From an uncultured Dehalococcoidales bacterium (GTDB lineage: Bacteria > Chloroflexota > Dehalococcoidia > E44-bin15), in assembly GCA_964443325.1 (NCBI GenBank), contig CAYUCL010000006.1, positions 14,644 to 78,643 on the forward strand: a stretch of 64,000 nt of DNA, given 5' to 3'. A program made the position numbers and the translations under genes. How positions within the stretch are numbered: the first letter of the stretch is position 1; each line of letters starts with the position of its first letter. The notes under the pieces were generated by a model, which made no database searches, was not told where the DNA came from, and saw only the letters and a program-made list of their open reading frames with translations. Below are positions 2,272 to 63,915 of the stretch, piece by piece.

Positions 2272-3840
2272 ATGGCGAAATATGAGAAAGGGCGTATTCT
2301 CATCGTTGACAGTATCGAGAGCACCGGCGAAACCATGTCGCTCATGTTAACGAAGAGCGGTTATGCGACGAAGGTGGCCGTAACAGGGCAAGAGGCGATG
2401 GAGAAGGCGCGAAGCCAACTCTTCAGCATGGCTCTTGTGGATATCGAGTTGCCTGATATGAATGGAGTGGAGCTAGTGGCATCTTTGAAGGAAATAAATC
2501 CAGATATAACGATGGTTGTCACCGGCTGTCCTTCTTCGGAAACCGTAGTGCAGGCCCTGAATAACGGAGCAGCGGCGTACATCACCAAGCCGTTGAACAT
2601 GGGTGACATACTGGCTACAGTTGAGGGGGCTGTTGAAAAGCAGCATCTGGCTATGGAGAGCAGGAAGCTGTACCAGAAGGCTCAGCGTGAGCTTGCCGAG
2701 AGCAGGCGGGCAGAGCAGGCGCTCAGGGAGTACACGGAGCGGCTGGAAGAGATGCTGGAACGGCGCACCAAGGGGCTTCGAGATGCACGTGAATACGCGG
2801 AGAGCATTGTGGCCGCGATTCGTGAGCCCCTGCTGGTGCTTGATGAGGAGCTGCGTGTAGTCTCGGCCAATCGGTCCTTCTACCGGACTTTCAAGGTGAC
2901 ACCAAAAGAGACTGAGGGACAGCCATTATACGAACTGGGCAACGGTCAGTGGGACATCCCCAGGCTGCGGGAGCTTCTGGCGGAGGTTCTACCCAATAAC
3001 GCAGCCTTTGACGACTTCGAGGTGGAGCATGACTACCCCACCATCGGGCAACGGACGATGCTACTGAGTGCTCGGAGGGAGAGAGAGGCGAGCGAGACAC
3101 GGATGATCCTTCTTACCATTGAAGACATCACCGAGCGCAAGCGGGCAGAGGAAAAAGTCCATATGTTTCAGCGGCGGCTTCGGTCTCTGGCGTCCCAGCT
3201 ATCATTGGCCGAGGAGCGGGAACGCAAGCGTATGGCGTCGGGTCTGCATGACCAGGTTGGCCAGCCGCTGGCTGCGGTTAAGATGAAGTTAGGCGCATTG
3301 CGAGGGCTGTTATCTGATGGCCTTGTTGACCAGGTGGACGAAATCCGGGAGCTTATCGACCAGGCGATTCACGAGATGCGGTCGCTGACTTTTGAGCTCA
3401 GCCCCCCTATTCTCTATGACCTGGGCCTTGAGCCAGCGCTAGAGTGGTTAGTCGAACAGGTGCAAGCAGAGCACGGCATCCTGGGCCGGTTCGAGGACGA
3501 CGGCCAGAACAAGCCACTGGGAGATGACTCTCGGGGGCTGCTCTTCTGGGTGGTGCGCGAGTTGCTGCTGAATGTCGTCAAGCACGCCAAGGCGCGAACC
3601 GCTACAGTATCCATTTGGAGAGATGACGACGAACTACGGGTGAGCGTTGAAGACGACGGGGTGGGATTCGACACCTCGGAGATTGAAAAGATGACCCGCG
3701 GCTTCGGCCTGTTCAGCATCCGGCAGCGATTGACCGAGTTTGGTGGGCAGGTTGAAGTCGAATCTAAGCCCGGCCAGGGAACGCGGGTTATTCTGGTGGC
3801 GCCACTTGATTGCAGTGATGAAAGCGAGCAAGGACACTGA
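2272..3840 (+). CDS. Sensor histidine kinase with N-terminal receiver: REC-PAS-HisKA_3-HATPase_c
   Basis: REC: ILIVDS...ALVDIELPDMNG...ITKP. PAS with the DITERKRAEE linker. H-box SGLHDQVGQPL (HisKA_3). HATPase N/G1/G2 boxes (VVRELLLNVVKHA, DDGVGFD, GFGLFSIRQRL). 522 aa. Confidence 0.85.
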   Translation: MAKYEKGRILIVDSIESTGETMSLMLTKSGYATKVAVTGQEAMEKARSQLFSMALVDIELPDMNGVELVASLKEINPDITMVVTGCPSSETVVQALNNGAAAYITKPLNMGDILATVEGAVEKQHLAMESRKLYQKAQRELAESRRAEQALREYTERLEEMLERRTKGLRDAREYAESIVAAIREPLLVLDEELRVVSANRSFYRTFKVTPKETEGQPLYELGNGQWDIPRLRELLAEVLPNNAAFDDFEVEHDYPTIGQRTMLLSARREREASETRMILLTIEDITERKRAEEKVHMFQRRLRSLASQLSLAEERERKRMASGLHDQVGQPLAAVKMKLGALRGLLSDGLVDQVDEIRELIDQAIHEMRSLTFELSPPILYDLGLEPALEWLVEQVQAEHGILGRFEDDGQNKPLGDDSRGLLFWVVRELLLNVVKHAKARTATVSIWRDDDELRVSVEDDGVGFDTSEIEKMTRGFGLFSIRQRLTEFGGQVEVESKPGQGTRVILVAPLDCSDESEQGH

Positions 3841-3842
3841 GG

Positions 3843-4495
3843 TGAGCGTCAAGGTTATACTGGCTGATGACCACAGGATCGTGCGCCAGGGGCTGCACTC
3901 CTTGCTGGAGAAGGAGCTCGATATGGAGGTGGTTGGCGAGGCGGACAACGGGCGAGCAACTGTAGAGATGGCGCGGGATTTAAAGCCCGACGTTATCGTC
4001 ATGGACATCACCATGCCTGAATTGAACGGAATTGAAGCCACCAGACAGGTCCTCGCCGATGACTCCGCCGTCAGGGTACTCGCCCTGTCGATGCATTCTG
4101 ACAAGCGTTTTGTCTCTGGAGTGCTCGGTGCTGGTGCAACGGGCTATTTATTGAAGGACTGCGTACTGGAGGAACTGGTGCGGGCCATCCGCGTTGTGGT
4201 CGCCGATCAGACCTACCTGAGTCCAGGGATAGCTGGCATAGTGGTAGAAGGATACATGCGTTATCTGCCAGAGGCCGAGAATTCGATTTTGTCTGCTTTG
4301 ACGGCGAGGGAGCGCGAGGTTCTACAGCTCTTAGCCGAAGGGAAAACCGTCAAGGAGATCGGGTACACCCTCCACTTGAGCGTTAAGACCGTTGAAACCC
4401 ACCGCCAGCAAATCACGAAGAAGCTGGATATCCGCACTCTAGCTGAACTCACCAAATATGCCATCCGCGAAGGATTGACCTCCCTCGAGCGCTAA
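3843..4495 (+). CDS. NarL/LuxR-family response regulator (paralog of 315-968 and 17616-18269)
   Basis: VSVKVILADDHRIVRQG...VIVMDITMPELNG...TAREREVLQLLAEGKTVKEIGYTLHLSVKTVETHRQQI. GTG at 3843 follows the kinase stop directly. An alternative ATG lies at 3818. Roughly 80% identical to the other two LuxR regulators. Confidence 0.85.
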
Positions 4496-4930: not shown

Positions 4931-4960
4931 CCCTCCCACCAAGGAAGGGGGGACTTCTGC

Positions 4961-5060
4961 CTCAGGTATTTCGAAGGTCAAATTCAGGGATTATAAACCA
5001 AAACTCAGGGATTTCCCGATTGTGCGCTGAACCGTGACCATTTAGTGTAGGAATGTTCTT
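4961..5060 (+). repeat. URE copy B (three TCAGG(G/T)ATT direct repeats at 22-bp spacing plus the CCCGATTGTGCGCTGAACCGTGACCATTTAGTGTAGGAATG box)
   Basis: Sequence family member. It lies 129 nt upstream of the ATG at 5189. Confidence 0.8.
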
Positions 5061-5188
5061 TAGGGCATGTGAGCAAGTCATCGGGGCGAAACAAGTTTAG
5101 GTGACGACACGTGCCGTACACAGTGCCCACTTATAAATGGCTGGCAGCAGTTGGCCAAAATGTCGCTCGTATTGAGGAGAGATATGAG

Positions 5189-6061
5189 ATGAAAGTCAAG
5201 GATAGGACAACAGAGCAGCAACTCATAAGTGAATTGGTGGAGACTCACCAACAGGTCGCCGAATTGGAGATATCAGAGGCCGAGCACAAGCAACGGGAGG
5301 AGGAACTGAGGGAGCATTTGGAGCGATTGGGAACGATGGTGGAGCGGCGCACCAAAGAGCTCCGGGATGCCCACGAAAAGCTCATTCGCCAGGAGAAGCT
5401 GGTCGTGCTGGGAAAACTGGCTGGCGGCGTGGGCCAAGAACTGCGCAACCCGCTGGAAGCTATCAAGAACGCCGCTTGCTTCCTCAACATGTTCCTGAAA
5501 GAGCCGGAACAGGAGGTAAAGAAGACACTGCATATCCTGGAGAAGGAAGTGGCGGCGTCCCAGAGAATCGTCAGCAGCTTACTCGAATTCGCCCGTCCCA
5601 GGCCCCCTGTTTGGCGAAAGGTGGATATCAACCATGTCATTGAGGAAGCACTGTCTCGCGCTGTGTTGCCGCCGAACATCCAGGTGGTAAGGCAACTGGA
5701 CGAGGCGTTGCCGCCCATCCTGGCTGATCCCTATCAGTTATGCCAGGTCTTCGACAACCTCATTCTCAACGCTATCCAGGCTATGCCCGAGGGCGGGCAG
5801 TTGCTGGTCAAATCGGAAATGCAAAGTCCGGAGCGGGTGTGCGTCTCCATCGCCGATACAGGGGAGGGCATAGCGGAGGAGGACATAGGCGAAATCTTCG
5901 AGCCACTCTTCAGCACCAGGGCTGGAGGTATTGGCCTTGGCTTGACCACTGTCAGGACCATTGTAGAGGGTTATGGAGGCACAATCGGAGCCGAAAGTGA
6001 ACAGGGGCAAGGCAGCACTTTCAGGGTAAACCTGCACAAGGACGGGGTTGGTGCAAAGTAG
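5189..6061 (+). CDS. HisKA-type histidine-kinase-like protein (coiled-coil leader-HisKA-HATPase_c) whose H-box reads GQELRNPL, Gln in place of the phospho-acceptor His
   Basis: The H-box region KLAGGVGQELRNPLEAI has CAA at 5435-5437 where HisKA proteins have His. The N-box (QVFDNLILNAIQA), G1 (DTGEGI) and G2 (GGIGLGL) are intact. No transmembrane segment. ATG at 5189 has an upstream GGAGAG RBS; the ORF-track GTG at 5111 is an alternative. Confidence 0.75.
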   Translation: MKVKDRTTEQQLISELVETHQQVAELEISEAEHKQREEELREHLERLGTMVERRTKELRDAHEKLIRQEKLVVLGKLAGGVGQELRNPLEAIKNAACFLNMFLKEPEQEVKKTLHILEKEVAASQRIVSSLLEFARPRPPVWRKVDINHVIEEALSRAVLPPNIQVVRQLDEALPPILADPYQLCQVFDNLILNAIQAMPEGGQLLVKSEMQSPERVCVSIADTGEGIAEEDIGEIFEPLFSTRAGGIGLGLTTVRTIVEGYGGTIGAESEQGQGSTFRVNLHKDGVGAK

Positions 6062-14512: not shown

Positions 14513-14630
14513 GATAAGGCATGCTTTTAAATTGTGCAATCGGGGAATCCCTGAATTTGTACTTCTAAATACCTGAGTTTGCAGGTAGCTGAAAACATGT
14601 TCGAAGGCTGCATGTGTTACCTGCCGCTGA

Positions 14631-14834: not shown

Positions 14835-14940
14835 CCTGTCCTATTGGCGTTATTGCGTGACAGATTCAGGTATTTCGAAGCCCAAAATCAGGGATTTCCT
14901 GATTGTAGACTGAGGTATAACGATGTAGTTTAAGGATGTT
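14825..14940 (+). repeat. URE copy C (CCACTGTTGACCTGTCCTATTGGCGTTATTGCGTGACAG plus two TCAGG(K)ATTTC repeats plus the GATTGTAGACTGAGGTATAACGATGTAGTTTAAGG box)
   Basis: Family member. It lies 230 nt upstream of the ATG at 15171. Confidence 0.8.
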
Positions 14941-15170
14941 AACTACTAGCTTGGGTAGGATTGAATACGATTTGTAGGGTTACGTCATACGGTAAGTCAG
15001 ATCCAGCTAGAAGGTTGTGCTCAGGACTCTTGGTGAGGATTGCGGCATTAGGCACAGCGGAGCTCGATGGCTGAATGTAGATAACCGGTAAGTTACAGTC
15101 GGAGGCGTTATTCAAGGGCCAACCGATTGAGACCTAGCGGCATCGTCCTCTACTGTAGGGAGCGCACAGG

Positions 15171-16253
15171 ATGTTAAAACAGGATGAGATGAAAACGCAA
15201 CTCCTAGATAAGCTGCCAGCATTGTTGCAGCCAACTGCTGAGTTGGAAGCATCAGAAACCGAGCGCAAGCGGGCGGAGGAGGCACTGGAGAAATCCGAAG
15301 GACTGTCCCGAGGCCTGATAGAGGCTGCGACAGTCGGCATATACATTGTCCAAAATGGGAAGTTCCAGTATGTCACCCCAGAATACGCACAGATTTCGGG
15401 TTACACAGTTGATGAGCTTTTAGGGACTTATTCTCTCAATTATATCCACCCGGACGATAAAGAGACGGTCAGAAAGAAAGCAGTAGAGCACCTGAAGGGT
15501 AAGAATGGGATACCCTACAAGTTTAGGCTTGTATGTAAGGACGGCAGGATATTGTGGGGTTTGGAGAAGGTTGCTTCCATCCGGTACAAAGGGAGGCCAG
15601 CAACGGTAGGAAGCTTTAGGGATATCACCGAGCGCAAACAGGCTGAGGAGACGTTCAGACAGAGTTTGGAAAAACTGGAAAGAATATTGGGGCAAACGGT
15701 CAATGCGCTGGCATCGGTGGTCGAATTAAGGGATCCCACAATGGCTGGTCACCAGAGGCGGGTAGCCCACCTGGCGAGCGCTATAGCCAGTGAGATGGGG
15801 CTCCTAGAGGATCAGATTAGTGGAATCTATATGGCCGGGCTTGTTCACGATGTGGGCACGGTATATGTGGCTGAAGAAATCCTCAGAAAGCCCGGTCGGT
15901 TAGATGAGGTTGAATTCAGCATGGTGAAAGTTCAGCCTCAAGCCTCTTACGACATATTGAAGACGATAGAGTTCCCATGGCCGGTTGCCGAGATGGTGCT
16001 TCAGCATCGCGAAAGGATGGATGGGTCTGGCTATCCTGCCGGTTTATCGGGTGAAGATATTCTCCTGGAAGCGAGGATTTTGGGGGTAGCTGAAGTTGTC
16101 GAGGCTATGACCTCCGACCGATCTTACCGACCAGCTCCGGGCATAGATGCAGCCCTGGCTGAGATTTTAAACAACCGGGGCATCCTATATGACCCGGTGG
16201 TGGTAGATACCTACTTGAGGCTCTTCAACGAGAATAGGTTTAAGTTCGAGTAG
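15171..16253 (+). CDS. PAS-HD-GYP domain protein (c-di-GMP phosphodiesterase type) with coiled-coil N-terminal leader
   Basis: Leader MLKQDEMKTQLLDKLPALLQPTAELEASETERKRAEEALEKSE. PAS: GIYIVQNGKFQYVTPEYAQISGY...DITERKQAEE. HD-GYP: HQRRVAHLASAIA...GLVHDVG...HRERMDGSGYPAGLSGEDI. 360 aa. About 85% identical to 18548-19630. Confidence 0.85.
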   Translation: MLKQDEMKTQLLDKLPALLQPTAELEASETERKRAEEALEKSEGLSRGLIEAATVGIYIVQNGKFQYVTPEYAQISGYTVDELLGTYSLNYIHPDDKETVRKKAVEHLKGKNGIPYKFRLVCKDGRILWGLEKVASIRYKGRPATVGSFRDITERKQAEETFRQSLEKLERILGQTVNALASVVELRDPTMAGHQRRVAHLASAIASEMGLLEDQISGIYMAGLVHDVGTVYVAEEILRKPGRLDEVEFSMVKVQPQASYDILKTIEFPWPVAEMVLQHRERMDGSGYPAGLSGEDILLEARILGVAEVVEAMTSDRSYRPAPGIDAALAEILNNRGILYDPVVVDTYLRLFNENRFKFE

Positions 16254-16294: not shown

Positions 16295-16603
16295 ATGGTT
16301 GAGCATGTCAACGATTTTCAGACGCTTCCGAAAAACAACTTCAAGAGCAAATATTCTGCTAAGATCATAGATATCTTGGAAAACCCTCAACTGGCCGAGG
16401 CGGACGGCATCTTTGCCACGCCGACAGTGATCAGAACTTGTCTAGTACCAATCAGGAGAATAGTGGGGAGCCTCGGCGAGCAAGAGAAGGTACTGGCGAT
16501 GTTGTATTTGGAGGAGACAAAGCTAGGGTTGGCCGTGTCCGCCTTTGTCGGGCCAGCAGGAAGTCTTCTCTCCTCTTCTGGAGTGAATGTGTCAGCAGCT
16601 TAA
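16295..16603 (+). CDS. KaiB-like protein (lacks the usual first beta-strand; has a roughly 35-aa Gly/Ser-rich C-terminal tail)
   Basis: Residues 20-75 are SAKIIDILENPQLAEADGIFATPTVIRTCLVPIRRIVGSLGEQEKVLAMLYLEE. They align with the KaiB core ([22 protein letters not shown]...PVRRIIGDLS..EKVLIGLDLL); the KaiB sequence is quoted from memory. An in-frame stop at 16268-16270 prevents N-terminal extension. Confidence 0.6.
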   Translation: MVEHVNDFQTLPKNNFKSKYSAKIIDILENPQLAEADGIFATPTVIRTCLVPIRRIVGSLGEQEKVLAMLYLEETKLGLAVSAFVGPAGSLLSSSGVNVSAA

Positions 16604-17021: not shown

Positions 17022-17195
17022 TATCGACTTCACTTTTCCTCCGACTTATGCCTAAACTCCCACTGTTGATCTGTCCTATTGGCGTTCTTGCGTGACAAAC
17101 TCAGGTGTTTCGAAGCCCAAATTCAGGTATTACAGGCCATAAATCAGGGGTTTCCCGATTGTTCAGTTAAGCATCACGATGTAATGTAGGAATGT
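17022..17195 (+). repeat. URE copy D (extended form with the 5' TTTTCCTCCGACTTATGCC...CCACTGTTGATCTGTCCTATTGGCG arm, three direct repeats and the ATGTAATGTAGGAATG box)
   Basis: Family member. A kinase remnant and then the orphan LuxR regulator lie downstream. Confidence 0.8.
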
Positions 17196-17199
17196 GGGC

Positions 17200-17615
17200 A
17201 ATTAACTTGGGTAAAAAAAGGCGACAATGCTGGAGGAGATACCAAGAACGAAAGGCAAAGCAAGCGAAAATGATACCGTTCTTGAAGGACTGGACCGCGG
17301 GTTACTACTGGATGCCATCAACCTCAAAGGACATACAAGATGGCGTCCTTGTTTTCCTTTGGGTCCGATCTGCTCCATACTTGCGGATCGGACCCACTTG
17401 AACAAGGGGACAGCCGGCACCGCGTGGAGGCAGACTGCGTTGGGAGTTGCACATGGGCTTGGTGCATAGGGTATGCAAAGATGAAGTGAGAAGACCGCGA
17501 CGAGCGCTGGAGCTGTACATGCGTTGTGAACTCGAATCCAAGCTCGCCCATACAACGCGGGTCACCCGTGTCGTGCCGATCGGGCATGTTGAAGAGAACA
17601 TAGGGGGCAACTAAG
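17200..17615 (+). pseudogene. Decayed histidine-kinase C-terminal remnant immediately upstream of the orphan LuxR regulator
   Basis: The frame ending at 17613-17615 (TAA) reads ...RVTRVVPIGHVEENIGGN*, collinear with ...GTWVTLVAPLESGGESTGGN* and ...GTRVILVAPLDCSDESEQGH* of the intact kinases. Further upstream DRGLLLDAINLKGH resembles the N-box region RGLLFWVVRELLLNVVKH. There is no intact ORF or start. Confidence 0.5.
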
Positions 17616-18269
17616 TTGAGTGTGAGAGTTATACTTGCAGACGACCACAGGATCATTCGCGAGGGGCTCCGCGCCATGCTTGAGAAGGAGCCCGACATGG
17701 AGGTGGTTGCCGAAGCGGATAATGGGCGAGCAGCGGTAGAGCTGGCGCGGGAGCTAAAGCCCGACATCATCGTCATGGACCTTACCATGCCTGAATTGAA
17801 CGGTATTGAGGCCACTCGACAGATCCTCGCCAGTGACCCCGGTGTCAAGGTACTTGCCCTGTCAATGCATTCAGACAAACGTTTTGTCACCGGAGTGCTC
17901 AGTGCGGGTGCATCGGGCTATCTATTAAAGGACTGTGCATTGGAGGAGCTGGTGCGGGCGATCCGCGCCGTGGTCGCAGACCAGACCTATCTGAGTCCGG
18001 GAATAGCTGGCATTGTGGTCGACGACTACATGCATCGCCTGCCACCGACCGACGACTGCACTTTGTCCGCCCTGACGGCAAGGGAGCGCGAGGTGCTACA
18101 GCTTATAGCTGAAGGCAAGGCCCTAAAGGAGATTGCATCCACTCTCAACTTGAGTGTTAAGACTATTGAAACACACCGCCAGCAAATCATGAAGCGGTTG
18201 GACATACACAGTGTAGCTGAACTCACCAAATATGCCATCCGCGAAGGACTGACCTCCCTCGAAAGCTGA
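17616..18269 (+). CDS. NarL/LuxR-family response regulator (orphan; third paralog)
   Basis: TTG start with AGGGGG 9 nt upstream. MSVRVILADDHRIIREG...IIVMDLTMPELNG...TAREREVLQLIAEGKALKEIASTLNLSVKTIETHRQQIMKRL. 217 aa. Confidence 0.85.
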   Translation: MSVRVILADDHRIIREGLRAMLEKEPDMEVVAEADNGRAAVELARELKPDIIVMDLTMPELNGIEATRQILASDPGVKVLALSMHSDKRFVTGVLSAGASGYLLKDCALEELVRAIRAVVADQTYLSPGIAGIVVDDYMHRLPPTDDCTLSALTAREREVLQLIAEGKALKEIASTLNLSVKTIETHRQQIMKRLDIHSVAELTKYAIREGLTSLES

Positions 18270-18299: not shown

Positions 18300-18420
18300 C
18301 GTTGCCCTTTCCTAATCATGTCCCTGAGTTACCATCTCAGGTATTTCGAAGCCCAAAATCAGGGATTCCCCGCCCAAACTCAGGCGTTTCCCGATTGTGC
18401 ACTGGGTCGTAAGGGTGTAT
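18300..18420 (+). repeat. URE copy E (three direct repeats plus CCCGATTGTGCACTGGGTCGTAAGGGTGTATTTTACAC)
   Basis: Family member. It lies 128 nt upstream of the ATG at 18548. Confidence 0.75.
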
Positions 18421-18547
18421 TTTACACATATCACATATAATAGAGACGAGCCTGAGCGAACAGGTTGAAATGGCGGCGGCGGCCACGTACCGACCGGTGA
18501 GTTGGGAGGATACGTGTCCGTAATTATGTTTTTTGGTGGGACAAGAG

Positions 18548-19630
18548 ATGGTAAAGCAACATACGGCGAAAGAGCAAGTCACAAACGAGTTGGCGGCGTT
18601 GCAGCAGCGAATCAGTGAACTGGAAGCAGCGGAAGCCGAGCACAAGCGAGTGGAGGAGGCACTCAGGGAATCTGAAGAACTGTCGCGAGGCCTGATCGAG
18701 GCGGCCACAGTCGGCACATACATTGTCCAGGATGGAAAATTCCAGTATATCAACCCGGAGTACGCACAGATTTCAGGTTACACCGCGGATGAGCTTCTGA
18801 TGACATATTCCCTCGATTACGTCCACCCTGACGACAGAGAGGCAGTCAGGACGAAGGCGATAGAGCACCTGAAGGGCCGCGATAGGAGATCCTACGAGTT
18901 CAGGCTTGTGCGCAAGGATGGGGAGATACGGTGGATTCTGGAGAGGGTCGCTTCCATCCCTTACAAAGGGCAGCGAGCAACGATAGGAAGCTTTATGGAT
19001 ATCAGCGAGCGCAAGCGGGCGGAGGAAGCGCTCAGATACAATGTTGAAAGACTGCAAAGAATGCTGGGGCAGACGGTTGGTGTGCTGGCATCAGTTGTTG
19101 AAGTGAGGGACCCCACCACCGCTGGTCACCAGCGGCGAGTGGCCCACCTGGCGAGTGCCATAGCCAGCGAGATGGGCCTAATAGCGGATCAGATCACTGG
19201 AATCTATATGGCCGGGCTTGTTCACGATGTGGGAGCGATATATACCCCCAGCGATATCCTCACTAAGCCGGGCCGGCTGGACGATGCTGAATTCAGCATG
19301 GTGAAAGACCAGCCGCGGGTCTCCTATGACATATTGAAGATGATAGAGTTCCCGTGGCCGGTGGCCGAAGTGGTCCTCCAGCACCGAGAAAGGATGGACG
19401 GGTCTGGCTATCCTGCTGGTCTATCGGGCGAAGATATCCTGCTTGAGGCGAGGATTCTGGGCGTGGCCGACGTGGTGGAGGCCATGACCTCCGACCGCCC
19501 CTACCGTCCGGCTCCGGGCATAGATGTAGCCCTGGAGGAGATCTCAAAGAACCGGGGCATCCTGTATGACCCGGTGGTGGTAGATACCTGCTTGAGTCTC
19601 TTCAACGAGAAGAAGTTCAAGTTTGAGTAG
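18548..19630 (+). CDS. PAS-HD-GYP domain protein (paralog of 15171-16253)
   Basis: Leader MVKQHTAKEQVTNELAALQQRISELEAAEAEHKRVEEALRESEE, then a PAS domain and an HD-GYP domain (HQRRVAHLASAIASEMGL...HRERMDGSGYPAGLSGEDI). ATG at 18548 has GGTGGG upstream; the ORF-track TTG at 18533 is an alternative. Confidence 0.85.
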   Translation: MVKQHTAKEQVTNELAALQQRISELEAAEAEHKRVEEALRESEELSRGLIEAATVGTYIVQDGKFQYINPEYAQISGYTADELLMTYSLDYVHPDDREAVRTKAIEHLKGRDRRSYEFRLVRKDGEIRWILERVASIPYKGQRATIGSFMDISERKRAEEALRYNVERLQRMLGQTVGVLASVVEVRDPTTAGHQRRVAHLASAIASEMGLIADQITGIYMAGLVHDVGAIYTPSDILTKPGRLDDAEFSMVKDQPRVSYDILKMIEFPWPVAEVVLQHRERMDGSGYPAGLSGEDILLEARILGVADVVEAMTSDRPYRPAPGIDVALEEISKNRGILYDPVVVDTCLSLFNEKKFKFE

Positions 19631-20224: not shown

Positions 20225-20344
20225 CCGTTCGTGGTCAGCTTTACACCGTTCGTGGTCAACTGTATACCATTCGTGGTGAACTGTACACCGTTCGTGGTGA
20301 ACTGTACACCGTTCGTGGTGAACTGTACACCGTTCGTGGTGAGC
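20225..20344 (+). repeat. 21-bp tandem repeat, about 5.5 copies of CCGTTCGTGGTGAACTGTACA
   Basis: Units at 20225, 20246, 20267, 20288, 20309 and 20330 with 0-4 mismatches. The same 21-mer is single-copy in the paralogous spacer at 16750. Confidence 0.85.
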
Positions 20345-20459: not shown

Positions 20460-20590
20460 TCGTTGACCTGTCCTATTCGCCTTCTTGATTGACAGACTCA
20501 GGTGTTTCGAAGGTAAAAATCAGGGATTCCACGACCGAACTCAGGGATTTCCCGATTGTGGGCTGAGCCATAACAATGTAGTGTAGGCAT
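20460..20590 (+). repeat. URE copy F (TTGACCTGTCCTATTCGCCTTCTTGATTGACAG plus three TCAGG(K)ATT(T/C)C repeats at 22/21-bp spacing plus the CCCGATTGTGGGCTGAGCCATAACAATGTAGTGTAGGCATG box)
   Basis: This is the best-preserved full-length copy. The giant sensor gene lies downstream. Confidence 0.8.
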
Positions 20591-20658
20591 GAGTGTAACT
20601 AACTAGAAAAAACCATCTACGGTTAGGAAGATTCCAGTACGATGGCGGGGGCTGCTAT

Positions 20659-20895
20659 ATGAAGAGCTGGTTATCTATGGGCCTTTCTCATAGGGGAGAG
20701 GCTTTATATTTTTTAGGTGGTATCGGTGGTGTTGTGCTTCAGACTATGGAGCGTCGCTATTCCGCGACACCCAAACAGGCTGAAAGCGTGTCGGCAGCGA
20801 ATCTATTGGATGAGGTGATATATCGTCACATCAAAACGGGTGACGGGCTGTGGTTGCCTGAAATTGCCGCTCTTTTTAGGAGGCACACGAAATGA
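20659..20895 (+). CDS. Hypothetical 78-aa protein in the leader of the giant sensor gene (stop overlaps its ATG as ATGA)
   Basis: ORF MKSWLSMGLSHRGEALYFLGGIGGVVLQTMERRYSATPKQAESVSAANLLDEVIYRHIKTGDGLWLPEIAALFRRHTK. I recognise no known domain. A weak GGCGGGGG lies upstream. It could be non-coding 5'-UTR. Confidence 0.25.
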   Translation: MKSWLSMGLSHRGEALYFLGGIGGVVLQTMERRYSATPKQAESVSAANLLDEVIYRHIKTGDGLWLPEIAALFRRHTK

Positions 20896-23800
20896 AAGAT
20901 CAACACAAGACAAAAGAGCAACTCATTAAGGAATTGGCGCAGATGCGCCAGCGACTCGCTGAATGTAAAGTATCAGAAGCCGAGCGAAAGCGGGTGGAGG
21001 AGGAAGTAAAGCAACTGAGTTCTGCTGTTGATCAGTCCATTGACGGCATAGCCATAGGTGACCTTGAACCGAAGATGACGTATGTCAACGATGCCTTTGC
21101 CCAGATGCACGGCTACTCGCCCGAGGAAATGATGGGGATGAAAGTTGCGAACCTGCACAACGAGGAACAGATGGACGAGTTCAAAACGGGTATCGATCAG
21201 ATAATGACGCAGGGTTCATGGATGGGTGAAATAGGGCATGTTAGAAAGGATGGAGCGCCTTTTCCCACATACATGTCGGTTACTTTGTTGAAGGATAGCG
21301 ACGGCAATCCGACAGGAATTGTGGCAGTTGCAAGAGACATCACCGAGCGCAAGCGGGCGGAGGGGGCGCTGCGGGAGTCGGAGGAGAAGTTCTCCAAGGC
21401 CTTTCGTTCCAGCCCTATCCCGATGGTTATTGCGGTGCTTGAAGATGGACGCGCTATCGATGTAAACGAAAGTCTTTTACATATGACCGGCTATTGTCGC
21501 GAAGAGTTCAGAGGTCGGAAGAGGGGCGAACTGGGTTTCTGGGTAAATCCAGAGAACCATGCCAGAATAGTGCAGATATTGCGTGACCAGGGGCAGATTC
21601 GCGATAGAGAGGAGGAGTATCGCATAAAGTCGGGCGAGATCCGTACCGCGCTGACTTCAGCAGAGATAGTTCACATTGGCGATGAACTGTGCGCGCTCTA
21701 CGTACTCAATGACATCACCGAGCGAAAGCGGGCGGAGGAGGCGCTGCGTGAGACTGAGAACCGCTACAAGGCCATCTTTGATAACCGGCTGCAGATGGTC
21801 TACATCAATGATGGCAAGGGGCTTTTTCTTGACGCCAACGATTACGCTCTGGAGCGGCTAGGATACACTCGCGATGATCTTGGAAAGGTCTCGTTCCAGG
21901 ACATGATCCATCCAGACGACCTTCCAGCGATACTACAAGTTTTTTCAGAGATCTTGACCAAGGGCTCCATGGAACGCTCTATTGAAATTCGCCTCGTTAC
22001 CAAATCCGGAGAGATAATCTGGGTTGAGACTTTCGGCATTCCCCTTGAGCGCGATGTTGACCATTATATGGCTCTGGGTATTGCAAATGACATCACCGAG
22101 CGCAAGAAGGCAGAGGAGGCGCTGCGGGAGAGCGAGGAAAAATATCGCCATGTGGTCGAGCGGGCAAATGACGGCATTCTGATTATTCAGGATGGGACAA
22201 TCAAGTATGCCAATCGGCGTGCGGAGGAATTAAGCGGGTACATTTTTGCACAGACCACTGAGGCGCAGTTTATTAATTATCTCCATCCCGATGAAATTCC
22301 CAAAGTGGTTGAGCGATACCAGCGACGTATGGCAGGGGAGGATGTCGAACCGGTATATGAGACGATTATGAGGCGCGAAGACGGCAGTGATATATATGTC
22401 GAGATCAATGCAGGAACAATTTCATATCGGGGAGAACCGGCGGATCTTGTTTTCATCCACGACATCACCGAGCGCAAGCAGGCAGAGCAGGCGTTGAGGC
22501 AGTCCGAGTACAAATTTAGAACTGCCCTTGAGTCGGCAAGGGATGGCATCCTCATAACTAGTAACGATGGCTCAGTGGTGGACATCAACAGGACGTTGCT
22601 GAACGCTTTGGGATACGATTCTAAGGAGCAAGTCATCGGTAGAAACTCTCTTGAGCTTCTTGCGGTCGAGCGATCCCAAAAGCAACTGGATGGCGTGCGA
22701 CGGGAGATGGCTCAAAAAGGCCACATTAGCAACGTGGAGTTAATGGGACTCACCCGCGATGGTAGAAAGGTGCCGGTTGAGGTAACCGTCTCCAACATGA
22801 CTGACGACGAAGGGCAGCCTGCAGGGTCTATTGTTGTAATAAGGGATATCACCCAACGCAAGAGGGCTGAGGAGGCGCTGAAGGAGTCGGAGGAGTTGTC
22901 CCGGGGAATGCTGGAGGCCGCAACGATCGGTATATACATCGTCCAGGATGGGAAATTCCAGTATGTCAACCCGCAGTTCGAGCACATAGGGGGCTACACT
23001 GCGGATGACTTTTTAGGGAAAGATTCTCTCGAGCATGTCCACTCTGAAGATAGAGAGATGGTCAGGAAGAAAGCGATAGAGCAATTAAAGGGACAGAGTA
23101 CCCAGCCATATGAGTACAGGTTTATATGTAAGGGCGGAGGGGAATTGTGGATACTGGAGAAGGTCAGTTCCATCCAGTATAAAGGGAAACCGGCGGCGAT
23201 CGGGAGCTTTATAGACATCACCGAGCGCAAGCAGGCGGAGGGGAAGCTAGAACGTTTGAACCTCGTGCTTCGCACCATCGGCGACGTCAACCAGCTCATC
23301 GCTAAAGAAAAGGACCGCGACAAGCTGATTAAAGCGACCTGCGACGCCTTCCTCGAGCATAGCAGTTACTATAATGCCTGGATGGCCCTGTTTGATGAGT
23401 CAGGAGAGCTTGTTGCCACTGCCGAAGCTGGCCTGGGCAATAATTTCCTGCCAATGGTAGACCAGCTCAAGCGTGGTCAGTTGACCAAATGCGGGCGCAG
23501 GGCGCTGAGGCAATCGGGCGTTGTGGTAACCAAAGACCCGTCTTCAACATGTCGTGATTGCTCATTAGCGGACAAGTACCCAGGCAGAGCGGCCATCACC
23601 ACCCGGATAGAATACGAAGGAAGGGTCTACGGCCTGCTGTCCGCCTCGATGCCACGAGCTTTCATCACGGAGGAACAAGAGCTATCCCTGTTCAAAGAGG
23701 TTGCCGCCGACATCGCTTTCGCCCTCTACACCATAGAACTGGAGGTGGAGCGCAAGCGGATGGAGGAGGCACTTCGGGAGAGCGAGGAGAGGCTCAGGGC

Positions 23801-26186
23801 GCTCATACAGAACGCCCCTGACGCCATCTATACCAACGACCTTGAGGGCAATTTCACCAGTGGGAACAAAAAAGCAGAGGAATTGGTCGGCTATTCCCGG
23901 CAGGAGCTCACCGGTGAGAACTTCTTCGATAAAGGGATTCTACCTGGGGAGTATGTCCCCAAAGCGATAGAGCTTCTGGAAAGGAACAGGAGAGGTGAAC
24001 CGACGGGGCCTGATGAATTTGAATTGGTCAGGAAGGACGGCACCAGTGTGGTCGTGGAGATATCGACCTTCCCGGTGAACAGAGGAGGGGAGGTTGAGAT
24101 TATGGGCATAGCCCGCGACATTACCGAGCGCAAGAAAGCAGATGAGGCGCTACGGGAGAGCGAGGAAAAACTGCGTGCCACATTTGGGACCATGTCTGAT
24201 GCGATAGCTGTTACCGATGTATCCGGCAATCTCGTAGACATAAACGAGGCAACAGTGCGCCTGCTTGGTTACAGGCAGAAGGAAGAGCTTATCGGGAGAA
24301 ACGCTCTTGATCTTATCGCTGAAAGAGACAGGGCTAAGGCTGCGGAAGATATTGGAAAGGCATTGGTAGAGGGGGACACTTCGCTCACAGAGTATGCGTT
24401 GCTGACCGAAAACGGTGGAGAAGTAGAGATCGAGGCGAGCGCTGCCCTCCTGCGTGACGGATCCGGGAATCCGGCAGGGGTAATCGCGGTAATGAGGGAT
24501 ATCACCGAGCGCAAGCGGGCGGAGGAGGAGATTCATCGCTACAACAAGCGGCTTGAAGCGCTCCACGCCATCAGCGCCGCGGTGAGCCAGACCATGGACC
24601 TGGATGAGATGCTAAACAGCGCCCTGGAGAAGGTGCTTGAGGTTACTGAGACACAGGCAGGCTATATACATCTCTATGACTGGGAAAGAAAGGAACTTGC
24701 TCTAAGGGCCCATCGGGGGATATCCGAGAAGTATGCTGCAACTCTGGAAAGATTGCCGGTGAGTGAGAAAGTCATACGGCGCTGGCAGAACAAGCCGGAG
24801 CCCAGTTTCAGGGCGCGTGGAATTGTAAGCGAGCTCGCTGATAGTGAAGCAACCGCCGCCGAGCTGGAAGACGGCATAGCAGTGCTGGCGACACTGCCCC
24901 TGGCGTCCAAATCGGGGATGCATGGAGGTTTGACCCTTGTCGGCGGCACACGCCGCTGGTTCTCCCCCGAGGAGCTGGAGCTTCTCAAGGCTATATGCAA
25001 CGAAATAGCGGTGGGCATAGAGAACGCCGAGCTACTCGAGAGAACGAGAGAGCTATCGGTGACTGATGAGCTGACCGAGCTGTACAATCGCCGCCACTTC
25101 TACGAGGTGCTTGAGAACGAGATGGCCCGCACGCAGCGCTATGGTGGCTGCTTCACTCTGGCAATGCTCGACCTTGATGAATTCAAGCAATACAACGATA
25201 GATTTGGGCACACCAATGGCGATGCCATCCTGAGGTCCGTTGGCCAAACGCTCAGGTCGCAATTGAGGAATGCCGACATGGTCTTTCGCTACGGGGGCGA
25301 TGAGTTCACCCTCGTCCTGCCGGCAACTGATGCGGCAAAAGCCAGGAAGATTGTGGACCGCATCAGGGTAAAAAGGTTACAAGGGCTTAAGGCCGATAAT
25401 GAAGGTTTGGAACACTGTCTCGGGTTCAGCGCTGGAATCGCTCAGTTCCCTGAGAATGCTGAAACGGCGGATGCCCTGGTATTCCTGGCCGACGCTGCCC
25501 TGTACCGTTCCAAGAGAGGGGGAGGAGGTAAATCTACGCTGGTCTCCGAGCTGGGGGGACTTGCAGCGGGCGCCCTGGACAGTGCAACCATGGACCAGGT
25601 CTATGCCCTGGCGGCTATGGTAGATGCCAAGGACCCGCATACCTATGGTCACTCGAAGAGGGTCGCCACAATATCGGAAATGATAGGCAAAGAAATCGCT
25701 CTACAGCCAAAAGAGCTAGCCGACTTACGCGCCGCTGCCCTGCTGCATGATATTGGCAAAGTGGGCGTACCCGACTCGATCCTGACCAAATCTGGCAAGC
25801 CGACAGAGCATGAATGGAAAATCCTAAAGAAGCACCCTGTTGAAGGGGCTAGGATCATAGGCTATGTGAAGGAACTCGAAGGGTTGGTGCCCTTAGTGCG
25901 GCACCACCACGAGTGGTGTAACGGCACCGGCTATCCAGATGGGCTAAGGGGAGAAGACATACCCCTTGGCGCCAGGATCATAAGCATAGCTGATGCCTAT
26001 GACACCATGACCACGCAGCGTCCCTACCGGGATGTCGTGTCTCAGGAAGAGGCACTTGAGGAACTGAGGCGGTGTTCTGGGACGCAGTTCGACTCTGAGC
26101 TTGTTGAGGCGTTTGGCCGCGCTCTGAATAGGACTATTCAGCAAGATGCTGGCAAAATGAAGTCCCCCTCTTTAGTCACGAAATAG
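20892..26186 (+). CDS. Giant multidomain signalling protein: coiled-coil leader - PAS x6 - GAF-like - PAS x2 - GAF - GGDEF - HD-GYP (1764 aa)
   Basis: Strong RBS AGGAGG 8 nt before the ATG. Eight DITERK(R/K)AEEALRESEE PAS linkers. GGDEF motif VFRYGGDEFTLVLP. HD-GYP: HSKRVATISE...LHDIGKVGVPD...HHHEWCNGTGYPDGLRGEDIP. The C-terminal roughly 550 aa is about 85% identical to the C-terminus of 6127-8970. Confidence 0.9.
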   Translation: MKDQHKTKEQLIKELAQMRQRLAECKVSEAERKRVEEEVKQLSSAVDQSIDGIAIGDLEPKMTYVNDAFAQMHGYSPEEMMGMKVANLHNEEQMDEFKTGIDQIMTQGSWMGEIGHVRKDGAPFPTYMSVTLLKDSDGNPTGIVAVARDITERKRAEGALRESEEKFSKAFRSSPIPMVIAVLEDGRAIDVNESLLHMTGYCREEFRGRKRGELGFWVNPENHARIVQILRDQGQIRDREEEYRIKSGEIRTALTSAEIVHIGDELCALYVLNDITERKRAEEALRETENRYKAIFDNRLQMVYINDGKGLFLDANDYALERLGYTRDDLGKVSFQDMIHPDDLPAILQVFSEILTKGSMERSIEIRLVTKSGEIIWVETFGIPLERDVDHYMALGIANDITERKKAEEALRESEEKYRHVVERANDGILIIQDGTIKYANRRAEELSGYIFAQTTEAQFINYLHPDEIPKVVERYQRRMAGEDVEPVYETIMRREDGSDIYVEINAGTISYRGEPADLVFIHDITERKQAEQALRQSEYKFRTALESARDGILITSNDGSVVDINRTLLNALGYDSKEQVIGRNSLELLAVERSQKQLDGVRREMAQKGHISNVELMGLTRDGRKVPVEVTVSNMTDDEGQPAGSIVVIRDITQRKRAEEALKESEELSRGMLEAATIGIYIVQDGKFQYVNPQFEHIGGYTADDFLGKDSLEHVHSEDREMVRKKAIEQLKGQSTQPYEYRFICKGGGELWILEKVSSIQYKGKPAAIGSFIDITERKQAEGKLERLNLVLRTIGDVNQLIAKEKDRDKLIKATCDAFLEHSSYYNAWMALFDESGELVATAEAGLGNNFLPMVDQLKRGQLTKCGRRALRQSGVVVTKDPSSTCRDCSLADKYPGRAAITTRIEYEGRVYGLLSASMPRAFITEEQELSLFKEVAADIAFALYTIELEVERKRMEEALRESEERLRALIQNAPDAIYTNDLEGNFTSGNKKAEELVGYSRQELTGENFFDKGILPGEYVPKAIELLERNRRGEPTGPDEFELVRKDGTSVVVEISTFPVNRGGEVEIMGIARDITERKKADEALRESEEKLRATFGTMSDAIAVTDVSGNLVDINEATVRLLGYRQKEELIGRNALDLIAERDRAKAAEDIGKALVEGDTSLTEYALLTENGGEVEIEASAALLRDGSGNPAGVIAVMRDITERKRAEEEIHRYNKRLEALHAISAAVSQTMDLDEMLNSALEKVLEVTETQAGYIHLYDWERKELALRAHRGISEKYAATLERLPVSEKVIRRWQNKPEPSFRARGIVSELADSEATAAELEDGIAVLATLPLASKSGMHGGLTLVGGTRRWFSPEELELLKAICNEIAVGIENAELLERTRELSVTDELTELYNRRHFYEVLENEMARTQRYGGCFTLAMLDLDEFKQYNDRFGHTNGDAILRSVGQTLRSQLRNADMVFRYGGDEFTLVLPATDAAKARKIVDRIRVKRLQGLKADNEGLEHCLGFSAGIAQFPENAETADALVFLADAALYRSKRGGGGKSTLVSELGGLAAGALDSATMDQVYALAAMVDAKDPHTYGHSKRVATISEMIGKEIALQPKELADLRAAALLHDIGKVGVPDSILTKSGKPTEHEWKILKKHPVEGARIIGYVKELEGLVPLVRHHHEWCNGTGYPDGLRGEDIPLGARIISIADAYDTMTTQRPYRDVVSQEEALEELRRCSGTQFDSELVEAFGRALNRTIQQDAGKMKSPSLVTK

Positions 26187-26884: not shown

Positions 26885-27030
26885 ATTTTTCCTACCACTT
26901 ATGCCACAGCTTCCACTGTTGACCTGTCCTATTCGACTTCTTGATTGACAAGACTCAGGTGTTTCGAAGGCACAAATCAGGGATTTCCCGATTGTGCACT
27001 GAGCTATCATGTTGTAGTTTGGGCATATTA
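26885..27030 (+). repeat. URE copy G (extended 5' arm, two direct repeats, CCCGATTGTGCACTGAGCTATCATGTTGTAGTTTGGG box)
   Basis: Family member. It lies 85 nt upstream of 27116. Confidence 0.8.
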
Positions 27031-27115
27031 GCAGAAGACATGGGGCAGAATAAGTTAGGGATCCAAAATCCCGTTTTGGGATAGGAAATTTCAGATTATA
27101 CGACGGAGGTGAAAC

Positions 27116-32328: not shown

Positions 32329-32450
32329 ACCTATCCTGTTCGCCTTCATAGATGATGCCCTCAGGTATTTCGAAGTCTAAACTCAGGGATTTCACCCCCG
32401 AACTCAGGGATTTCCCGATTGTAGGCTTGGCCATAAGCGTATAGTTTAGG
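32329..32450 (+). repeat. URE copy H (GACCTATCCTGTTCGCCTTC arm plus three TCAGG(G/T)ATTTC repeats at 22/21-bp spacing plus CCCGATTGTAGGCTTGGCCATAAGCGTATAGTTTAGGAGG)
   Basis: It ends 5 nt before ATG 32455, the first gene of the + arm of the glycan cluster. Confidence 0.8.
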
Positions 32451-32454
32451 AGGT

Positions 32455-63109: not shown

Positions 63110-63365
63110 GACTCCCCCTAAAGATTTGGGTACCTCGAATTTCCAACAATTAAGTGCGTTTATTCCCGATGTGGCAGGTCATTTGTCTGGAGTTTTAACC
63201 CCGCCGGCGTAGCTATCACAACTCGACGGTAACACCAAAGCCACGTGACTTTGCCCTATGAGAATATGCGAATTTTGCCTTTCTGGAGCAGGATGTTACA
63301 TCTCTAGCTCTACTTGCCCGACTCAGTTGCTCACGTGCCTAAACTACTGCGTAATGGAGCGCCGC

Positions 63366-63410
63366 GCAATCGGGAAATACCTGAGTTAGGGCTTCGAAAT
63401 ACCTGAGTTG
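63366..63410 (-). repeat. URE copy J in reverse orientation (reverse complement reads CTCAGGTATTTCGAAGCCCTAACTCAGGTATTTCCCGATTGCGCGGCGCTCCATTACGCAGTAGTTTAGG)
   Basis: It is the only copy on the - strand. It lies about 230-260 bp upstream, in the - sense, of the first - strand glycan gene, whose start is at 63109. Confidence 0.75.
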
Positions 63411-63799
63411 GTCATGGAGGAATGCGGATGTAGGAAGTGGTTGGCTCCCTGAACCTTCTCCGGTGTGTGGTTGCCGTTAAGGCCTCATACGTCAGCATGT
63501 TAGTGTGGCTTTAAAAAGCCATATGTCGGTTCCTGGGGGTATTCCTTAATGAGACGAGTTAGTGATTTACGCACGCAGATTAGTAATGCTTTGCTATGAC
63601 GTTGCTTCGGATAGAAGCGGATTCTTTCCTGTTTCTTCCACGCTTTCTCTTCGTGTTACAGCTCTATCTGGGCCGATTCGTGCCCATTGCATATGAGGTG
63701 AAACAATCCCAGGTAATTTGATACTCAAAGTGTAGCCCTAGCTAACCAATCATATCATCCAGGAAGGATGGGATTACCCAGAAGACAAACTCCGTCTCT

Positions 63800-63915
63800 G
63801 CTATCAACATATCCTGTTTGTGTTCTTTGGAGATAAACTCAGGTTTTTCGAAGACCAAACTCAGGGATTTCCTGATTGTGCGCTGAGCCAATTACCGGGA
63901 TTATGGGATGCAAAG
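63800..63915 (+). repeat. URE copy K (two direct repeats plus CTGATTGTGCGCTGAGCCAATTACCGGGATTATGGGATG box)
   Basis: Oriented towards a + strand gene beyond the window end. It is divergent from copy J. Confidence 0.7.

Follow-up and report, generated by a model that had tools for sequence, protein, structure and literature searches.

Five N-termini with a common leader

The 64,000-nucleotide stretch of DNA analysed here at its full length, referred to below as the window, comes from an uncultured Dehalococcoidales bacterium (GenBank assembly GCA_964443325.1, contig CAYUCL010000006.1, positions 14,644 to 78,643 of the forward strand). Four genes for sensor-type proteins and one free-standing open reading frame (ORF) in the window begin with a similar stretch of about 45 residues, which we call the leader; genes and their products are named by the position of their first nucleotide. 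A preliminary description of the window had pointed out this common N-terminus, together with a copy of a DNA element upstream of each of the five ORFs. Both observations are borne out: the window contains exactly five in-frame leader copies, at 1981, 5189, 15171, 18548, and 20892, and all five ORFs stand behind a copy of the element. The copies were detected with an N-half profile, which covers the first 28 residues of the leader and leaves out the ERKRAEE part, run against the six-frame translation of the whole window. This profile returns just these five, with scores of 36.7 to 57.1 bits, and the runner-up match scores 5.1 bits.

1981 to 2121, + strand: free-standing leader ORF of 46 codons; N-half profile 57.1 bits, the best in the window
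5189 to 5317, + strand: leader codons 1 to 43 of the 290-residue HisKA/HATPase protein encoded at 5189 to 6061; 39.5 bits
15171 to 15299, + strand: leader codons 1 to 43 of the PAS-HD-GYP protein encoded at 15171 to 16253; 36.7 bits, the lowest of the five
18548 to 18679, + strand: leader codons 1 to 44 of the paralogous PAS-HD-GYP protein encoded at 18548 to 19630; 45.5 bits
20892 to 21014, + strand: leader codons 1 to 41 of the 1764-residue protein encoded at 20892 to 26186; 48.0 bits

Pairwise local alignments of residues 1 to 29 gave z-scores of 5.0 to 12.4 over composition-preserving shuffles for all ten pairs of leaders. Because these scores are so high, the similarity is positional and not a matter of generic E/K richness, and a mere low-complexity composition, the objection that the preliminary description had itself raised, is ruled out. 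Among themselves the window copies are 33 to 55% identical in protein sequence and 49 to 70% identical in DNA sequence. They differ most in their first residues (MVKQHTAK, MLKQDEMK, MKVKDRTT), and in the 15171 leader the zipper half described below is degenerate, with prolines P16 and P21 in mid-helix.

The domain architectures behind the leader were assigned with Pfam. The 5189 protein consists of HisKA and HATPase_c and nothing else, the 15171 and 18548 proteins combine PAS with HD_5 (HD-GYP type), and the 20892 protein contains eight PAS domains, GAF, GGDEF, and HD_5. This confirms the HisKA kinase, the PAS-HD-GYP proteins, and the 8-PAS GGDEF protein named in the preliminary description, but the variety is smaller than had been claimed, with only three architectures and one free-standing ORF, as 15171 and 18548 are full-length paralogs with 75% identity across all 360 residues. 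The Pfam PAS model begins at about residue 44 to 47, and leader residues 1 to 43 lie outside any Pfam domain. Sensors in the window that do not carry the leader mostly start with a receiver domain, followed by a similar linker (2272 and 6091). KaiB-family genes occupy 16295 to 16603, directly after the leader-bearing PAS-HD-GYP gene 15171, and a receiver-KaiB fusion is found at 3126 to 3794 of L059, a locus that also holds a homolog of the 1981 ORF, making KaiB a recurring neighbour of such sensor clusters.

The 5189 protein has no sensor domain. Its leader runs into an ERT-type signalling helix (the segment VERRTKEL, read as such by eye), which is followed by DHp and CA. At residue 83 (nucleotides ~5435 to 5437) the protein has a glutamine where ZraS and KinB have the phospho-acceptor histidine (LAGGVGQELRNPL versus LAAGVAHEIRNPL), and the ortholog in the Dehalococcoidia metagenome-assembled genome CSMAG_854 (locus L012) has a glutamine at that site too; the 5189 protein is possibly either a pseudokinase or a regulatory partner. 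An AlphaFold2 single-sequence model of the protein forms a helix over residues 2 to 81, with a predicted local distance difference test score (pLDDT) of 67 to 87 over the first 60 residues; the overall pLDDT of this model is 45.9 and its N-terminal helix alone was used.

Anatomy and distribution of the leader

A position-specific consensus was taken from a stack of 104 leader-bearing N-termini and reads MKDxxKTKEQLIxELxxLRQRIAELEASExERKRAEEALRESEE, continuing with K45, Y46, and R47. The best-conserved positions are M1 (97%), D3 (88%), K6 (89%), T7 (86%), L11 (95%), E14 (96%), and L25 (93%). Large hydrophobic residues occupy positions 11, 15, 18, 22, and 25, and then 39, 46, and 49/50. One unbroken heptad register runs from L11 to position 50, with d at 11, 18, 25, 32, 39, and 46 and a at 15, 22, 29, 36, 43, and 50. 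By its residue pattern, the leader appears to be a fusion of two parts, a short leucine zipper (residues ~7 to 28) and an inter-PAS linker helix (residues ~29 to 50). In the first part L11, L15, L18, I22, and L25 take heptad positions d-a-d-a-d, and the L-L-L-I/V-L pattern is that of a canonical short zipper; L11, L18, and L25 span three heptads, and R32 breaks the leucine series ahead of L39. The g-e' pairs E14-R19 and R21-E26 carry opposite charges in the consensus and are only partly complementary in the window copies; by coiled-coil rules, this charge pattern would favour a parallel, in-register homodimer. The linker half has a polar core, with E29, R32, E36, and E43 at a/d positions.

The nature of the second part can be read from the sensor proteins themselves. 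The motif E[RH]K[RQK]xEx turns up at 18 places in the window, in each case within the reading frame of a sensor gene on the + strand; 13 of the 18 are internal and directly follow a PAS domain. The internal linkers read (D)I(T/S)ERK(R/Q)AEEALRESEE, and the second part of the leader is the same type of helix (DITERKRAEEALRESEE). The helix that follows the 'DIT' end of internal PAS domains (ERKRAEEALRESEEKYR) in turn serves as N-cap to the PAS domain that comes next. One such linker, which shares homology with the C-terminal leader half, lies in the 20892 protein:

22851 to 22895, + strand: internal PAS-PAS linker TQRKRAEEALKESEE of the 20892 protein

When the 15171 protein was compared with the 20892 protein by BLASTP, the best match (61% identity) aligned residues 30 to 173 of the former with residues 654 to 793 of the latter, which comprise an internal PAS domain and the linker before it. 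From the motif census and this match to an internal linker, we conclude that leader residues ~30 to 50 are an ordinary inter-PAS linker or N-cap helix.

The AlphaFold2 model of the 18548 protein, built from a 37-sequence alignment, has a mean pLDDT of 87.6. In this model residues 2 to 52 form one continuous helix (pLDDT 72 to 86) that extends into the PAS core, where the first PAS strand begins at residue 56, and a second long helix (residues 153 to 187) connects the PAS domain to the HD-GYP domain. The predicted single long helix, the continuous heptads, and the homology of the C-terminal half to PAS-PAS linkers all support the suggestion, already made in the preliminary description, that the leader is a dimerisation or signalling-helix-like module.

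The leader is not confined to this genome. A profile of the five leaders and 12 metagenomic matches (alignment A3) was run in an index-free search of 1.84 billion cluster representatives (50% identity). At E <= 1e-3 it matched 21,351 protein clusters, a number that drops to 3,929 at E <= 1e-10; some of these scores stem from many internal linkers. Among the best 150 matches, 109 match the N-half profile at no less than 15 bits, 107 of them within five residues of the protein's residue 1, and the leader-bearing proteins in this set are 333 to 3100 residues long. Behind the leader, a sample of ten shows PAS (from residue ~44), GAF, or a hydrophobic segment, with outputs that include HisKA, HisKA_3, and HD-GYP; the hydrophobic segment behind the leader of protein P0141 is possibly membrane-spanning. 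The source names of leader-bearing homologs include Dehalococcoidia-related Chloroflexi, Anaerolineae, Nitrospirota, Deltaproteobacteria, and Aminicenantia; all of these homologs are annotated just as 'PAS domain S-box protein'. A word-indexed protein search with the leader profile returned only 17 short proteins (40 to 77 residues), many of them probably from short contigs, and was used for profile building and not for distribution.

No Pfam or NCBIfam model covers the leader at E <= 10, where sub-threshold coiled-coil noise was all that appeared; a profile search of the PDB found no solved chain with the leader, tblastn with the consensus leader found no match in 72,556 plasmids, and searches of a literature library for leader peptide strings and for N-terminal zipper/PAS topics found no description of it. 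The first helix of the ribosomal protein uL29 gave weak PDB hits (E = 0.004 to 0.01), which were judged to be helix-like convergence. In our view the leader belongs to a known kind of element but represents a sequence family that is new, uncatalogued, and very large, whose members probably serve as helical caps at the N-terminus of cytoplasmic PAS-type signalling proteins.

Two irregularities were seen among the homologs. Several proteins (P0226, P0234, P0235, P0243, P0247 to P0251, and others) are annotated with an extension of 14 to 17 residues ahead of an MKDKYKTKEQL leader; given the conserved leader Met1, this suggests that their start codons are mis-called. In another organism, at 5001 to 5170 of L062 (JGI 3300062553, a 550-kb contig) and on three other contigs, an in-frame TGA severs the leader from a multi-PAS protein. 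The TGA sits exactly at a consensus arginine (ESEEKY*GLVEN; CGA would give R) and the stop is identical in four samples, as would be produced either by a fixed nonsense mutation with downstream re-initiation or by a recoded stop.

The free-standing ORF and the upstream element

The ORF at 1981 to 2121 had been taken for an orphan remnant. It is instead probably a gene, conserved in length and under purifying selection. The ORF encodes the zipper and the linker, after which it stops, and has a Shine-Dalgarno-like GGAG upstream. A 46-codon ORF of identical length and with the identical stop codon is present in CSMAG_854 (L012) and on the metagenome contig L058, and GC-rich genomes (L066 and L059 to L061) have homologs that are more remote and 55 or 52 codons long. 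Wherever the gene upstream of the ORF is visible (the window, L066, and L059 to L061), that gene encodes a LuxR-type response regulator. In L059 a convergent gene comes after the ORF; ORFs of this type are therefore not the front end of a broken sensor. Comparison of the 46-, 52-, and 55-codon ORFs from three lineages gave, for the first 37 codons, nonsynonymous divergence (pN) of 0.13 to 0.23 versus synonymous divergence (pS) of 0.57 to 0.89, and for the core codons 14 to 36 a pN of 0.05 to 0.09 versus a pS of 0.54 to 0.86. With pN well below pS, the small protein is under purifying selection. A signature of its own (LRLLRRISELEAAEIERKRAE) marks the subfamily, in which the b/e positions L16 and L19 are additional hydrophobic residues; with 3 clusters among 5.8 billion sequences, the subfamily is rare. 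Hypothetically, the 1981 product is a candidate modulator that could pair with other leaders.

The 5' region of the small ORF contains a perfect hairpin of 15 bp with the loop region CGCCCCCGC, at 1800 to 1840 of the window and at 423 to 463 of L012; the RNA fold z-scores are -4.5 and -5.5. L066 has a hairpin with the same loop upstream of position 674, with compensatory changes in the stem (GGUCCGACCCGGU/ACCGGUCGGGCC). Rfam searches of the whole window and of positions 1500 to 2300 gave no match, the hairpin included.

The element upstream of the leader ORFs is ~110 bp long, and its nhmmer profile finds 11 copies in the window, 6 of which have no leader downstream. It is built from direct repeats of TCAGGnnTTTC, two or three in number, at a spacing of 21 to 22 nucleotides, followed by CCGATTGTG...ATAAC..TGTAGT.TAGG. 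The copies are as follows:

1534 to 1645, + strand: before the 1981 ORF
4955 to 5063, + strand: before 5189
14860 to 14948, + strand: before 15171; two TCAGGnnTTTC repeats, with exactly one 22-nucleotide unit missing
18330 to 18438, + strand: before 18548
20491 to 20600, + strand: before 20892; three direct repeats TCAGGnnTTTC at 21-nucleotide spacing
17094 to 17203, + strand: before a leader-less gene for a LuxR-type response regulator (17616 to 18269)
26952 to 27031: before a leader-less ORF of 154 residues, read as a membrane protein
32359 to 32451: before a leader-less ORF, read as a glycosyltransferase
63324 to 63411, - strand: before a leader-less UDP-glucose-dehydrogenase-like gene
63833 to 63890: no leader seen; the downstream gene runs off the window
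14537 to 14581, - strand: weak copy, no leader

The genes behind the element are mixed and include sensors, regulators, and polysaccharide-synthesis genes. A scan for the element in a collection of 185,579 species genomes, which does not include the source genome, found 52 stretches, nearly all of them single matches in unrelated taxa; by our estimate, 17 fixed bases would be matched by chance ~10 or more times in 1.2e12 positions. Confirmation with nhmmer left only three strong near-full-length matches, all on contigs of the relative CSMAG_854, where the element likewise precedes both leader-bearing and leader-less genes. A sigma-70 consensus scan of two element copies found no match, so that 'promoter', as the element had been called, is an inferred label only. 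With its repeats, the element looks like a tandem binding site of a regulator, perhaps of the three paralogous LuxR-type response regulators of the window, and we take it to be a separate, lineage-specific regulatory site common to many genes.

These three closely related regulators, of the LuxR/NarL type, are encoded at 267 to 968, 3740 to 4495, and 17616 to 18269. They are overlapped by long, conserved-looking antisense ORFs (107 to 577, 3634 to 4104, and 17324 to 17890), which are most likely a mechanical by-product of paralogy. Near the element copy at 20491, tandem units of ~21 nucleotides (CACCGTTCGTGGTGAACTGTA) lie upstream at 20230 to 20340, and a terminator-like hairpin with a T-run (GGGCCTTTCTCATAGGGGAGAGGCTT TATATTTTTT) lies at 20679 to 20714, between the element and the start of the 1764-residue sensor gene, and could serve as an attenuator within a long 5' untranslated region (UTR).

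Proposed role of the leader, alternatives, and known systems

We propose, with a probability of about 0.6, that the leader is a parallel dimerising N-terminal helical cap for the first sensor module of soluble PAS-type proteins; both the dimerisation and the role are what we infer. In a soluble sensor, the zipper would stand in for the missing upstream dimer, be it a PAS domain, a receiver domain, or a transmembrane helix, and would clamp the two N-terminal linker helices in register. Such a clamp would lead to correct assembly of the first PAS dimer or, in the 5189 protein, of the signalling-helix/DHp bundle. The polar core of the linker (E29, R32, E36, E43) would stay marginally stable and could therefore switch. 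The lineage, like many others, would cap most of its sensors that start with a PAS or DHp module, which would explain why the leader is found in five genes here.

Several observations weigh against this proposal. Sensor 27891 of the window starts with a PAS domain and does not carry the leader, and ~60% of the closest PAS-HD-GYP homologs are also without it, having different N-termini. Glutamate at three successive a positions and arginine at a central d position are unfavourable for a stable coiled coil, and the AlphaFold2 model is of a single chain and gives the helix alone. Residues 2 to 8 (K-D-x-x-K-T-K) are near-invariant right after the start codon, which is more than a zipper requires and hints at an extra function in partner binding, N-terminal processing, or translation initiation. 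Finally, the zipper would seem to be dispensable at least in 15171, as that gene looks intact despite two prolines in its zipper.

How the five leaders came to resemble one another had been explained differently in the preliminary description, by a transferable cassette of promoter element, 5' UTR, and leader codons, or by gene conversion that keeps the leaders uniform. It is true that all five leader ORFs of the window stand behind an element copy. However, a nucleotide alignment of the kind proposed there, taken from the element through codon ~45 (alignment A1), yielded a conserved element, a spacer that cannot be aligned, and a leader that is only moderately similar. The spacers between element and start codon measure ~100 to 330 nucleotides, are of unequal length, and are unalignable among the five loci; more than half of the element copies precede leader-less genes; and the leader is found in thousands of proteins from other phyla, where it occurs without the element, whereas the element is found convincingly only in close Dehalococcoidia relatives. 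Conversion fares no better, with the low DNA identity of the leaders given above and with a longest exact run common to them of 7 to 13 nucleotides. In the 15171/18548 pair, moreover, the first 90 nucleotides are 64% identical, as against 76 to 89% in every later block, and because the leader is thus the least similar block of the pair, the pattern is opposite to that of leader conversion. Of the 118 closest PAS-HD-GYP homologs, ~45 have the leader; it thus follows the identity of the first domain and not the gene body. We give hardly any credence to either version. A chance resemblance of generic E/K/L-rich helices could draw on the E/K/R/L/A-rich composition and on the weak matches of the profile to unrelated helices, among them that of uL29, but with shuffle z-scores of 5 to 12, an N-half profile that finds just five copies in the six-frame translation, and more than 100 unrelated proteins keeping one register anchored at residue 1, its probability is practically nil.

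Two further alternatives concern what the leader does. The leader could be a tag for hetero-association, through which the leaders of different sensors would pair with each other, with the 46-residue protein, and with the histidine-less 5189 protein, the mini-protein acting as a titrating 'microProtein'. Several leader proteins are grouped within 26 kb, the stand-alone ORF with its own signature is under purifying selection in three lineages, and, because the 5189 protein has neither a sensor domain nor a phospho-acceptor histidine, its input would have to come via protein contact. There is also a precedent in histidine kinases that regulate each other via helical dimer interfaces, as described for RetS-GacS (PMC8498467). 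Against this, the g-e' charges of the consensus suit homodimers equally, the mini-protein family is tiny, and clustering of sensor genes is common without physical coupling. We consider pairing of this kind unlikely, and a specific form of it, in which the leader would be a tag for mixed coiled-coil assemblies, the 46-residue protein would titrate or bridge them as a bacterial 'microProtein', and the 5189 protein would be a regulatory partner that gets its input via the leader, appears quite unlikely. It is likewise improbable that the leader is a docking or turnover signal in which MKDxxKTK would be recognised by a protease adaptor, a modifying enzyme, or a KaiB-like or receiver partner, with the helix mainly a spacer. 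Such a signal would fit the conservation of residues 1 to 8, which is as strong as that of the zipper core and is not needed by a coiled coil, and the KaiB-family genes that adjoin leader genes at 16295 to 16603 and the small-ORF homolog in L059. However, Pfam and NCBIfam at E <= 10 yielded no match to a known degron or modification motif, and the window leaders vary most in exactly residues 1 to 8.

As a dimerising cap, the leader would work by an unsurprising mechanism, as helical PAS extensions are already established for dimerisation and signal transfer. What is new is a single, sharply conserved sequence of ~45 residues, anchored at Met1, in thousands of sensors from several phyla and outside Pfam and NCBIfam. 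The leader looked unusual under the genome-specific 'cassette' reading; that reading does not hold, and the conservation and spread do. A curated model of the leader would improve the annotation of multi-PAS proteins and the calling of start codons, and the leader offers a defined handle for the question of how the dimer register is fixed in soluble sensors. The stand-alone ORF and the histidine-less leader-kinase are leads toward regulation of sensors by coiled-coil partners.

The leader can be compared with several known systems. N-caps and long helical extensions of PAS domains, such as the Q-linker of PpsR, make parallel PAS dimers more stable and pass on signals (PMC3949515), and the PAS 'DIT' motif couples PAS domains to the following coiled coil (PMC3183031, citing Moglich et al.). 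The leader resembles these N-caps and DIT linkers in that its residues ~30 to 50 are homologous to 13 or more internal linkers, in its heptad pattern, and in its helix, which enters the PAS core. In contrast, it starts at Met1 with no upstream PAS domain, has A/S-S-E-A/T ('SEA/SET') where D-I-T would be, and adds a 28-residue zipper with its own conserved sequence at the exact N-terminus. The signalling helix, or S-helix, is ~40 residues long, comprises five to six heptads with polar core residues in the central heptad and 'ERT' at its positions c-d-e, and joins an upstream to a downstream domain (PMC1592074). The leader is similar in length, heptad periodicity, and polar core, occurs in the same protein families, and has E31-R32-K33 on heptad positions c-d-e, as the S-helix has its 'ERT'. 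Its signature, however, is ERK/EHK, with E at position 31 in 62%, R at position 32 in 63% or H in 20%, and K at position 33 in 63%; the three commonest residues at this last position do not include T. Furthermore, nothing lies upstream of the leader, given that 107 of the 109 profile matches are within five residues of the protein start.

Plants and animals have microProteins, such as the Id-type inhibitors, which are small proteins made up of a dimerisation domain only. By analogy, the 46-residue 1981 product, which is under purifying selection, would be just the association helix that larger multi-domain proteins encoded in its vicinity also carry. In ArcB, a leucine zipper lies directly N-terminal to the PAS domain and is needed for proper signalling (PMC3364231). 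That zipper is anchored by preceding transmembrane helices, whereas the leader is the free N-terminus of a soluble protein, and the two are likened by function and not by sequence. As a coiled coil immediately before the PAS domain of a sensor, the ArcB zipper is the nearest functional analogue of the leader.

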